Positions 726-29,999 of a stretch of 30,140 bases of DNA are shown here, one piece after another (position 1 is the first letter of the stretch; each line of letters begins with the position of its first letter). The DNA lies in IMG/VR virus record IMGVR_UViG_3300027679_000026, positions 1 through 30,140 of that record. One strand, given 5' to 3'. Below the pieces are notes generated by a model. It searched no databases. It saw only the letters and a list, made by a program, of their open reading frames with translations, and was not told the DNA's origin. Position numbers and translations under genes: made by a program. This DNA is from a virus (lineage: Duplodnaviria > Caudoviricetes).

Positions 726-1793
726 ATGAAAAAGAAAATTGCTGTCTATGCTATTAGTTTAAATGAAGAGTCTTTTGTTCAAAGATTCTATGAGTCCTGC
801 AAGGATGCAGACTTGATTGTCATTGCTGACACTGGGTCAACTGATGGTACAGTTGAGCTTGCTCGTAGTTTAGGTATCCAAGTCTATACAATAACTGTAA
901 GTCCTTGGCGCTTTGACACAGCTCGTAACATAGCCTTAGGATTGATTCCTAAAGATATTGATATCTGCATTGCATTAGATCTAGATGAAGTAATGACTCC
1001 TGGTTGGTACGCAAGCGTACAAAACAACTGGAAGAGTGACATTACTCGCTTGCAGTACAGATTTGACAATCAAGGCGATATCTACAACTGCACCAAGATA
1101 CATTTACGCACAGGCTATCAATGGCGGCACCTAATACATGAAATGATTGAACCTGATGCTCGTATGACTGAAGTCTGGGCCATCACCGAAGACATACTTT
1201 CAGAGCATCATCCGGATCTGACTAAATCAAGAGGACAGTATTTGCCCATGCTGAATGCCAGCATTGCTGAGAATCCTTATGATCATAGAGACAGTTGGTA
1301 TTTGGGCAGAGAATTCTTTTATCACCAGCAATGGCTTAGAGCTATCAAGGAATGGGATAGATACCTAACCTTACCTGGTGCTACTTGGCATCATGAGCGT
1401 AGCTTTGCTCTGCGTCATATGGGGCGAGCTTACATGCATCTGGGTCAGCATGAACTAGCACTCAAGCATTTTAGAATGGCTGTAGACACTAGCCGTTTGA
1501 TCCGTGATACTTGGGTAGATCTAGCACAGGCCTGCTATGAACTTAAACAATGGCATGAATGCTATTACGCGGCCACACAGGCTTTGACCATCACAAGTAG
1601 AGAATATGTGTTTACCAGCACAGGTGAGCCTTGGTCATTTAAAACTTATGACCTAGCGGCATTATCAGCTTATAACCTAGGACTGCGTGAACAGGCTGTT
1701 GCTAATGGCACACAAGCTCTTGAACTAAATCCTGATGATGCTAGATTGTTTAACAACTTAGAATACTATTTGGCCTTGGCTATTAAGTCCTGA
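726..1793 (+). CDS. Glycosyltransferase family 2 with C-terminal TPR repeats
   Basis: N-terminal GT-A motifs (IAVYAISLNEE, ADTGSTDGT, FDTARN, DxD in LDLDE), then helical TPR-like repeats (YLGREF, ALRHMGRAY, DLAQACY, ALELNPDDARL). It is the only convincing plus-strand gene. Confidence 0.9.
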   Translation: MKKKIAVYAISLNEESFVQRFYESCKDADLIVIADTGSTDGTVELARSLGIQVYTITVSPWRFDTARNIALGLIPKDIDICIALDLDEVMTPGWYASVQNNWKSDITRLQYRFDNQGDIYNCTKIHLRTGYQWRHLIHEMIEPDARMTEVWAITEDILSEHHPDLTKSRGQYLPMLNASIAENPYDHRDSWYLGREFFYHQQWLRAIKEWDRYLTLPGATWHHERSFALRHMGRAYMHLGQHELALKHFRMAVDTSRLIRDTWVDLAQACYELKQWHECYYAATQALTITSREYVFTSTGEPWSFKTYDLAALSAYNLGLREQAVANGTQALELNPDDARLFNNLEYYLALAIKS

Positions 1794-3160: not shown

Positions 3161-3210
3161 TGTTATTTCCTTTTGTTTAGAAGATTACTCAGCCATTTCA
3201 TCTCTCAGTG

Positions 3211-3218
3211 TATTTATA
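3211..3218 (-). promoter_or_regulatory. TATAAATA box upstream of the polymerase-like gene
   Basis: Minus strand AGTGT-TATAAAT-ACACT; the box sits inside a 5-bp inverted repeat. Confidence 0.6.
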
Positions 3219-3270: not shown

Positions 3271-3300
3271 CAAAGAAAAAGCCCACTTATAGCGGGCTTT
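3271..3300 (-). terminator. Intrinsic terminator
   Basis: Minus strand AAAGCCCGC-TATAA-GTGGGCTTTTTCTTT. Confidence 0.8.
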
Positions 3301-3428
3301 GGAAAGGGTGTAGGGGAGTATGAGAATATGTCAATGGCTGTAGACAAAAGAAAAGGAATACATGATACTATACTAAGGAGCACCATGCAACATAACTTAT
3401 TGCAAGTTATGTGTTCTCCCCTACACTT
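3271..3428 (-). ncRNA. Candidate structured small RNA
   Basis: TAAATA at 3430-3435 upstream and a terminator downstream. An 11-bp closing stem pairs 3308-3318 with 3416-3426. Internal hairpins lie at 3390-3412 and ~3358-3388; the latter needs G-U pairs that form only on the minus strand. Confidence 0.55.
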
Positions 3429-3432
3429 TTAT

Positions 3433-3939
3433 TTATTTGTATCTGCGAATAATTCCATCATTAGTGACTGTTTCACTACAGGGTTGATTAGTTGGATTTG
3501 GTACTGCACAAATTGGTTTGGGTTTTGGCTTTTCACAACCTTCTACTCGAAAGTATTGAGTATAAGCTACTTGTACGGCATGTCCTCCAGAAACAAATCC
3601 TTCACCATCCGGGCTAACATAACGCTTACAAGTATTACAGCGTGTACGCCAATGCGGCAGCGGAGTTTCACAATAGCGTTGTTCAATAATTTGGTTAGGT
3701 ATAATGTCTCCGCAACCCAATTCACAACTTCGATGTTGGTCTTTTATTTTAACCAAATCAAAACCCAATGTTGGATTATCTGTAATCTCAACTGGCATTT
3801 GATATTCTTCACCAAACTCATCTACTTCTGTAATGTACTCAATCGCGGCTCTATGGTTAGCACTTTTGATTGGCTTACGATCTTTGAGTTCAGCAACTTG
3901 TTCGAGTCGCGCTCTAAATTCATCTTTGTTCATGCTCAT
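3433..3939 (-). CDS. Hypothetical Cys/His-rich, probably Zn-binding protein (168 aa; alternative start 3933)
   Basis: CELGC...YC...HW...CNTC pattern. The start lies in a palindrome containing TAAATA. Confidence 0.75.
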   Translation of the reverse strand: MSMNKDEFRARLEQVAELKDRKPIKSANHRAAIEYITEVDEFGEEYQMPVEITDNPTLGFDLVKIKDQHRSCELGCGDIIPNQIIEQRYCETPLPHWRTRCNTCKRYVSPDGEGFVSGGHAVQVAYTQYFRVEGCEKPKPKPICAVPNPTNQPCSETVTNDGIIRRYK

Positions 3940-28973: not shown

Positions 28974-29410
28974 AGTTCTAAGTCGTCCTCTTGAATAACT
29001 TCAATTAGTTCAGCAAACATATTGCTGGGAGCATTGAATGTTTGAACTAAGTCAATAGCATAGTCAGTGTCAGCAAACAGCTTGTTCCAACGCTCTATTG
29101 GTGCTAGTGCGAAGTCTTTGGGCAAAAGCTGTTTGGTCTTGCCCTTGGCTTCATTAACCATGTCTGTCAGTATGTCTGTTGCTGTGCGATTCTGCCCTGT
29201 AGTAGTTTTAAAGCCTTTTAAGGGAGTACGCATAAAGTCTAGTAAATCTGGATCTTGCTCTACTGCTTGGCTAATTTCTGTGATTACTAATTTAACATGT
29301 CGAGTCAGCTGTTTGCGTTGTTCTAGTGTTTGCTTGACATAAGTTGTTGAGTATTTAACTCCGTCACGGGGTTCCATTTTGTTTAACTTTTGGTAGCGTA
29401 TGGTTTTCAT
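28970..29410 (-). CDS. Hypothetical protein (146 aa)
   Basis: ATGA-coupled ORF in the early operon; no motif recognised. Confidence 0.75.
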   Translation of the reverse strand: MKTIRYQKLNKMEPRDGVKYSTTYVKQTLEQRKQLTRHVKLVITEISQAVEQDPDLLDFMRTPLKGFKTTTGQNRTATDILTDMVNEAKGKTKQLLPKDFALAPIERWNKLFADTDYAIDLVQTFNAPSNMFAELIEVIQEDDLEL

Positions 29411-29607
29411 TTTTGTGCCTTTGTAGTAGTTAATATCCTGCCTGTAGTATATTCACGGGTAATATATCTAGTACCAGCACTTGCACCGCAATGCTGGGGA
29501 TATTGATAGTTGGCTTGTTTATAGTAATTTTGGCATAGGTCTTGGCTATCATACATGGCCGCACAGCCGCTAAGTGTTACAACTACAGCCATTAAGAGTA
29601 TTTTCAT
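29407..29607 (-). CDS. Small lipoprotein (possible superinfection exclusion)
   Basis: Signal peptide with a lipobox: MKILLMAVVVTLSG|C. GAGGT RBS. Confidence 0.7.
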   Translation of the reverse strand: MKILLMAVVVTLSGCAAMYDSQDLCQNYYKQANYQYPQHCGASAGTRYITREYTTGRILTTTKAQK

Positions 29608-29970: not shown

Positions 29971-29999
29971 ATTATATACAATGTATTTATACATGTCAA
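29971..29999 (-). promoter_or_regulatory. Perfect consensus sigma70 promoter with a nested TATAAATA box
   Basis: Minus strand TTGACA-tgtataaatacattgta(17 nt)-TATAAT; TATAAATA at 29984-29991. Confidence 0.85.

Follow-up and report, generated by a model that had tools for sequence, protein, structure and literature searches.

The window analysed here is an entire virus record, i.e., a single contig of 30,140 bases from a small tailed phage, whose genes lie nearly all on the minus strand and include terminase, portal, scaffold, capsid, tape measure and tail genes (identified by Pfam and PHROG scans). Its capsid protein is about 49% identical to those of the HTVC111P group of Pelagibacter phages and 40% identical to that of phage DSL-LC06, whose cluster has been termed orphaned in a report that, in its accessible sections, mentions neither satellites nor promoters (PMC10611076). 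Among 8,000 scored capsid matches, 4,491 were homologs at E <= 1e-30. We found neither a cultured close relative of the phage nor a host for it: blastn of the window against cultured phages gave no relevant match, and a capsid search in genome contigs returned one 16-kb MAG contig and distant Streptomyces prophages, with no usable host. Elsewhere in the window, a glycosyltransferase-TPR gene (726-1793, plus strand) lies on the opposite strand with a TAAATA hexamer of its own, and a small lipoprotein gene (29407-29607, minus strand) matches the Cor superinfection-exclusion family. In one relative (G006), terminase and portal form a single 903-aa ORF (L321:2436-5147, minus strand), which may be a fusion or an assembly error.

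The region studied lies between a Cys-rich gene and a polymerase-like gene, and the minus strand carries the following features, listed in the direction of transcription.

3433..3939, minus strand: gene for a Cys-rich protein of 168 aa, the usual upstream neighbour of the RNA; its ORF ends inside TAAATA in most homologs
3430..3435, minus strand: TAAATA, a T4-late-type promoter element, overlapping the stop codon of the 168-aa gene
3424, minus strand: predicted transcription start, an invariant G, the sixth base after TAAATA
3416..3426, minus strand: 5' strand of the closing stem P1, 11 bp with 3308-3318 in the minimum-free-energy (MFE) fold
3390..3412, minus strand: hairpin P2 (3412-3403 paired with 3390-3399), variable among homologs and missing from minimal ones
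3359..3389, minus strand: hairpin P3, 11 bp including 3 G-U pairs (3389-3379 with 3359-3369)
3347..3358, minus strand: U/C-rich linker, single-stranded in the fold
3329..3346, minus strand: hairpin P4, the conserved core, with a 4-bp stem (3346-3343 with 3329-3332) and the 10-nt loop UACAGCCAUU
3319..3328, minus strand: pyrimidine tract 3' of P4 in anti-Shine-Dalgarno (anti-SD) position, judged by SD-probe energy, which is only moderate in the window itself
3308..3318, minus strand: 3' strand of P1, with ACAC at its end (MFE fold and alignment)
3301..3307, minus strand: CCUUUCC tail, a near-invariant C/U tail in alignment A3
3271..3300, minus strand: intrinsic terminator, with hairpin 3300-3278 and a U tract
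3185..3216, minus strand: leader of the polymerase-like gene, with a second TAAATA (3216-3211) and a 3-codon uORF (3196-3185) whose start region is predicted to pair with P4
2120..3160, minus strand: gene for a protein of 346 aa with a remote family-A polymerase-like fold (structure model and Foldseek), the downstream neighbour, outside the RNA

Folded as minus-strand RNA, 3271-3435 reaches -56.6 kcal/mol (z -7.30; none of 200 shuffles as good), and the plus strand reaches -47 (z -4.13), although across the family folding energy does not tell the strands apart (the sense strand was lower in 13 of 23 cases and the antisense strand in 8, with 2 ties). The original prediction, made from the letters of the window alone, had placed a structured small RNA here, and all its coordinates for the minus-strand unit were correct: both the 11-bp closing stem and an 11-bp hairpin with G-U pairs (3389-3359, three of them G-U) are part of the MFE fold, as is a hairpin at 3390-3412, which has 10 bp counting its closing G-U pair rather than the 9 bp proposed. 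The Rfam search it had called for yielded nothing in the window (0 matches at E <= 1 with the Rfam 15 covariance models, those for 6S, SRP, Y RNA, tmRNA and phage motifs among them), and the same search of 12 homolog loci returned two weak matches, neither on the RNA. A tRNA or tmRNA mimic was rejected (ARAGORN reported 0 genes and the folds have no cloverleaf), as was coding on the plus strand, where the ORF from a conserved ATGGC has 203 codons in the window, 18 in the nearest relative and 3-75 elsewhere. In the RNA runs X2-X5, a fraction of 0.07-0.11 of words was present, with 1-2 read-sized contigs each at depth 2-4; one of these contigs spans 3328-3478, and none of them matches the predicted RNA ends.

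To collect homologs, we searched with a pattern in which TAAATA, three P1 pairs, GCCAT and the tail were set. Of its 32 viral matches, 21 had at least 9 of the 11 P1 pairs and 20 of those were kept, the 11 matches with 8 or fewer pairs being left out; L040 (10 of 11 P1 pairs) was dropped by eye as it lies within apparent coding sequence, without P4 or terminator. L480 and a stem in G017 without GCCAT were also dropped. A covariance model, a stem descriptor and one further pattern added G006, G010, G011, G014, G018 and L481. With identical or near-identical loci counted once, the family comprises 24 distinct sequences including the window, from related small phages of a 25-37 kb clade. The same architecture stands upstream of relatives of the 346-aa gene in L001, L006, L010, L011, L013, L017 and L019; no such RNA was seen upstream of those in L005, L018, L025 and L026, and five more loci had too little upstream DNA. 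The covariance model (R1) is insensitive to short forms, having missed G010 and G018, so that our failure to find the RNA in the relatives G001, G003, G004, G005, G008, G002, G012 and DSL-LC06, several of them complete, means only that they hold no detectable copy. Likewise, 11 records or fragments of large phages gave no credible match. The stem in G017 (L346:19434, plus strand) is a closing stem of 13 bp that comes after a TAAATA and encloses a CUCCUUA tract, and is perhaps a divergent variant or a chance occurrence.

The structure is conserved through covariation, the test that had been set beforehand. In an unfitted MAFFT alignment of 18 sequences (A3), 91.6% of 251 cells of P1 and P4 were paired, with two-sided changes in 48 cells; this pairing score was reached by 0 of 500 shuffles, and slid controls were 37-52% paired. 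P1 taken separately was paired in 96.6% of cells with two-sided changes in 6 of 10 pairs, P4 showed such changes in 4 of 4 pairs, and single folds of all 18 homologs had z from -2.2 to -7.0. Minimal homologs (55-79 nt) keep P1, P4 and the anti-SD tract and are without most of P2 and P3, and in one relative's contig 3275-3350 and 3412-3453 are retained with 3351-3411 replaced by 73 other letters. The RNA family is real and conserved, and it has no counterpart in Rfam.

Several further elements recur around these RNAs. Additional hairpins separate P1 from the terminator in L342:2600-2450 (minus strand; G011), L344 (G014), L321:10575-10440 (minus strand; G006) and L011:2600-2700; they carry a recurring GGCTGTCA motif which, in G010 and just past the terminator of the window, could pair with the P4 loop. 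An ACAAGG loop in P2/P3 of L017, L019, L038, L051, L052 and L053 is complementary to the CCUU tail after P1 and may be part of a pseudoknot or a protein site. Finally, three divergent small phages share a 19-nt motif with flanking similarity (L051:4230-4250 and L135:704-723, plus strand; L319, minus strand, G018), which sits in long ORF-poor regions downstream of TAAATA and is a possible origin or second RNA.

The most constant part of the RNA is the P4 loop. GCCAU lies in the loop or at its 3' edge in 23 of 23 homologs and in L481, and each of the 23 is predicted to form a hairpin around it. It is also present in 10 of the 10 homologs found by queries that did not contain it, with a per-sequence chance of 0.03-0.17, although those homologs are kin, so that the product of these chances is not a probability. 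A pyrimidine anti-SD tract follows 5-12 nt after GCCAU in the homologs, and the mean energy of an SD probe over the 23 peaks (-3.8 kcal/mol) 6 nt past CAU, which is the spacing of a real start region. In the window, the conserved look-alike of a ribosome-binding site plus ATG is AATGGCTG (3333-3340), and the loop UACAGCCAUU is complementary to A-AUG-GCU-GUA, its complement AATGGCTGTA standing at 3333-3342. The loop A behind Val/Ile/Leu at codon 3 is equally explained as part of an A-U pair closing the loop, and four lineages read Lys, Asn, Tyr or His. By fold and sequence, the GCCAU loop and the anti-SD tract form a conserved, exposed seed complementary to start regions, as expected of an antisense sRNA.

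This changes how the anti-start segments of the original prediction are to be read. Four look-alikes had been listed, at 3313, 3322, 3351 and 3374; the strings exist, but none is kept across homologs, and those at 3313 and 3322 leave only 1-3 nt between SD and ATG. Since only P4 is kept, a hairpin that the prediction did not list, the four reduce to one conserved module outside that list and a lineage-specific one in P3, where a CAU lies on the stem and CUCCUUA in the loop. Outside P4 we counted 9 modules of CAU plus anti-SD in 23 RNAs, 5 of them in the window and its nearest relative L001, compared with 4.7 expected from shuffles for all modules.

An invariant loop might instead be held by a protein. 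In such a decoy or scaffold, GCCA (or CAU with the C/U tracts) would be bound by a protein such as a repressor of translation or a defence nuclease that cuts anticodons or anti-SD sequences, and the complementarity to starts would be incidental. A multi-hairpin RNA clamped by a stem such as P1 is typical of protein-binding RNAs, GCCA keeps a fixed place in the loop, and other loops (ACAAGG) recur without any anti-start sense. However, the anti-SD signal is strongest at the distance from CAU that a start region would have; the stem sequence varies freely, and so does the loop, which measures 3-14 nt in MFE folds; and no tRNA-like gene is detected by ARAGORN. P4 also lacks the 7-nt loop with a centred CAU of initiator tRNA. 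We consider a decoy improbable, and antisense action on start regions, taking helper, own and host targets together, appears fairly probable.

The RNA gene has promoter and terminator motifs of its own and no conserved ORF. Of 23 homologs, 22 have G as the sixth base past TAAATA and 21 have GT there; P1 pairing upstream of this position is broken in several homologs, i.e., dispensable, and a terminator-like hairpin occurs within 160 nt in 19 of 24. The distance from TAAATA to P1 is the same in all homologs, which for pattern hits is so by construction as it was an element of the search. T4 late promoters have no -35 element and consist of one TATA-like box, placed roughly a helical turn before the start; they are read by a phage sigma, gp55, which they require (PMC2988020). 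The G six bases past TAAATA fits a T4-type late start, with the predicted +1 at 3424; a start near this position is suggested because the G is conserved, the pairing upstream is dispensable and the distance from the T4-type late box is about one helical turn.

The overlap of TAAATA with the upstream stop codon in most homologs, and the lack of a terminator between the two, would also suit an element that yields no free RNA, either a cis-acting structure in the 3' UTR of the Cys-rich gene or a signal at the DNA level. For this gene itself we found no family match, and an atlas search yielded sub-threshold matches only. Against a cis-acting or DNA element, in six homologs (L006, L011, L013, L017, L046 and G010) no ORF ends in TAAATA, yet its distance to P1 is kept within one base; moreover, the invariant G fits a start site, and G-U pairs are present in P1 and P3. 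We regard a cis-acting or DNA element as very unlikely. In this revised form, the proposal of a small RNA that has a late promoter and carries segments against start codon and SD is supported by the covariation, the constancy of GCCAU, the spacing of the anti-SD tract, the geometry of the promoter and the terminators.

TAAATA occurs rarely in these genomes and stands in front of gene starts. In the window, 8 of 16 sites lie just upstream of starts, whereas nine control hexamers reach 0-21%, with the top values in those that overlap TAAATA; the TAAATA sites that head transcription units are at 29989, 28769, 28661, 24963, 11740, 3944, 3435 and 3216 (minus strand) and at 716 (plus strand). The same position was seen for 85 of 180 sites in 14 RNA-bearing small genomes, for 41 of 103 in 7 small genomes without detected RNA and for 158 of 491 in five large-phage fragments; control hexamers gave 7-19% in the RNA-bearing small genomes and the large fragments. 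No sigma factor, clamp, helicase or primase was detected among 36 window ORFs searched with PHROGs, of which 16 were searched with Pfam as well. A large fragment that uses TAAATA encodes a late sigma factor (L297:8579-9502, phrog_12791, E 1.6e-76; 87 of about 700 large-phage proteins scanned), and completeness estimates for the large fragments with TAAATA imply genomes of about 350 kb. Because the small phage has a TAAATA regulon without a sigma of its own, and a large phage using the same motif has a late sigma, we infer that the small phages borrow late transcription from a large T4-like phage, which is a candidate helper only. The two kinds of phage have in common one short tape-measure match and no other gene that we found. 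The likeness to T4 late transcription lies in the single TATA-like box upstream of the start without -35 (PMC2988020), with the 6-mer TAAATA as the shared core; the difference is that the promoter here stands on a genome without a detectable gp55 or sliding clamp. Many other 25-37-kb relatives also have TAAATA-led units and, like the window, no detected sigma factor, clamp, helicase or primase, which suggests a virion-complete clade dependent on a large T4-like helper.

We then considered which starts the RNA might act on, beginning with the phage's own genes. The 346-aa protein next door has no Pfam or PHROG match; its model (pLDDT 90.3) has T7 DNA polymerase as best Foldseek match (E 1.4e-4, TM 0.38), and its family of 47 proteins has an invariant D149 and H310-D311-G312. 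With a Cys-containing N-terminal part and no exonuclease domain, it may be a minimal polymerase or an initiator. The predicted binding of P4 to its leader is -16.4 to -18.1 kcal/mol, the best among 52 own start regions. The complementarity reported earlier at 3190-3197 is thus real and, with an 8-nt core match, the best own-genome site, whereas two further matches proposed with it, at 3167-3174 and at the gene start at 647, are weak (-8.4 each) and the 647-type segment is lost in L001.

The same antisense chemistry could accordingly be directed mainly at own promoter-proximal non-structural genes, a late RNA turning off the replication or early operon, here via the leader uORF. In strength the leader site is on a par with the best 5% of 109 Met-Ala starts of large phages; in 8 of 14 genomes, the strongest own site belongs to a gene or uORF that begins directly after a TAAATA; and the RNAs of L011 and L013 each have 10 nt in common with their own downstream start. 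Tests of RNAs against their own and other starts were significant or marginal: RNAs fitted the first start downstream of themselves better than those of other RNAs (p 0.002 for 7 pairs and 0.0004 for 11 pairs, with one related pair included and starts picked by hand), and in an unselected whole-genome self-match test p was 0.0009 over 14 genomes and 0.04-0.06 over the 9 lineage representatives. However, own-start matches end at or just past codon 2, and the full loop complement is at no own annotated start in 12 genomes. Own sites are only weak (-8 to -11.5) in G031, G026 and G027, the matched genes belong to several families rather than one, and a start-region style common to small phage and helper could yield the same self-match signal. 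Own targets have solid support and are a close rival to those in a helper, although as the main targets they seem to us unlikely, if less so than a decoy. Action on the replication gene, as originally proposed, is possible in the window genome, where it has the best own site, but control of the polymerase-like neighbour is not the general role, because in at least 8 of 23 homologs the next gene downstream has convergent orientation, with no polymerase-like gene behind the RNA. A cis-antisense RNA controlling replication was rejected for the same reason, and as the RNA lies on the same strand as the leader and upstream of it, with only the 8-nt core match. Short uORFs initiated by ATGGC (3-24 codons) stand directly behind TAAATA at L032:967, L338:6010, L474:8405 and L473:2846 (minus strand), L051:4138 (plus strand) and position 3216 of the window (minus strand).

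For targets in large phages, a scan for TAAATA, SD and the loop complement returned 120 loci, of which the T4-like tail tube was the largest family. In energy calculations, the tail tube ranked first for 19 of 23 RNAs among 20 large-phage families near the tail module, a ranking that is partly circular because the family was found via the AATGGCTGTA pattern and the loci were ranked by likeness to the MAV seed. Specifically, 53 of 75 tube genes start with MAV or MAI and 72 of 75 have TAAATA, and 24 of 69 sheath genes start with MAL; across 50%-identity representatives, only 18 of 110 start with MAV, MAI or MAL. Once opening costs are counted, it is rare for a tube gene to be the one best site of a large fragment. 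Met-Ala-Val made up 0 of 103 Met-Ala starts in RNA-bearing small genomes compared with 7 of 109 in five large fragments that were selected for tube homology rather than for the motif (Fisher p 0.014, in a test that treats orthologous genes as independent), and 3 of 61 in small genomes that lack the RNA. The suggestion that a helper's mRNAs are targeted has thus gained independent support from the late sigma, the tail-tube ranking and the Met-Ala-Val counts, for what is a candidate helper only.

SD followed by AUGGC is a generic consensus, common in bacteria, and the targets might be host mRNAs with Met-Ala starts, for a general shut-off of translation. Yet expression is tied to a late phage promoter, and a fully generic repressor would hit the small phage's own Met-Ala capsid and tail genes; mainly host targets are the least probable of the readings considered here. 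Our preferred reading, to which we give a probability of roughly 0.4, is that the RNA is a multi-target antisense repressor of Met-Ala starts, induced by the helper's sigma and directed mainly at tail and other virion genes of the helper.

Under this helper-directed reading, the late sigma of a co-infecting large T4-like phage would switch on the RNA gene and transcription would begin at 3424. The P4 loop would nucleate on AUGGC and the short P4 stem would open; the pyrimidine tract would then cover the SD, with the spacer looped out, and initiation would be blocked on many Met-Ala genes. As loop and tract would pair with AUGGC and SD, one RNA would read the consensus and not a single mRNA. 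P1 would clamp and protect both ends of the RNA, and P2/P3 would be exchangeable extras. The weakest step is the choice of targets, for which helper genes with Met-Ala-Val/Ile/Leu starts may come first and the leader of the own polymerase-like gene second.

The closest known system is SviR, the sRNA of the Vibrio cholerae phage satellite PLE (10.1101/2022.04.08.487710), and it was the only sRNA of a satellite against its helper that our literature search returned. SviR is likewise intergenic, of similar size (160-300 nt) and ended by a rho-independent terminator; its promoter is activated by the helper phage, as that of the RNA here may be; and it is predicted to occlude the ribosome-binding site of a late helper gene and to act on own transcripts also, as we propose here (10.1101/2022.04.08.487710). 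Because SviR acts on both genomes, helper and own targets are not mutually exclusive. The same description sets SviR apart by its separate, target-specific seeds, whereas the RNA here displays the start-codon/SD consensus in a loop. Furthermore, PLE is a chromosomal island that borrows virion parts from its helper (10.1101/2022.04.08.487710), whereas the phages here encode capsid, portal, terminase, scaffold, tape measure and tail, i.e., they are not satellites without virion genes of their own, and would borrow only transcription and probably also replication factors.

Trans-acting bacterial sRNAs that cover the SD or AUG, including multi-target anti-SD sRNAs, resemble the RNA here in a C/U-rich single-stranded seed, an intrinsic terminator and a predicted block of translation. 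The RNA here differs from them in that its ends are locked in a long closing stem, its anti-AUGGC is displayed in a loop, its promoter is of phage late type and it has no Rfam match. A survey of candidate structured RNAs lists IMG/VR intergenic motifs with covariation, among them about 8,500 unnamed candidates from DNA viruses (PMC10690425). None of four motifs sought was found in its tables; the search covered the survey tables, with the alignment archives, one table and the PDFs outside it, and the family may therefore stand among the unnamed candidates. A literature search returned no description of the RNA family or of small phages with TAAATA and no sigma.

Taken at its widest, the helper-directed reading would make these virion-building phages of 25-37 kb transcription parasites of T4-like phages of about 350 kb, armed with a helper-triggered, generic jammer of start regions whose loop reads AUG-GCN-NUA and whose tract reads the SD, so that the helper's tail tube, sheath and other late genes would be silenced and own genes would avoid that start; we put this forward as a tentative and, in its entirety, rather doubtful proposal. 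If the inferred action is true, the RNA would be a natural antisense RNA seeded on the consensus of translation starts and not on one gene, which is a simple way to silence late genes as a whole class. It would point to an unrecognised life style, in which abundant aquatic phages with complete virion modules seemingly depend on the late sigma factor of a large phage.
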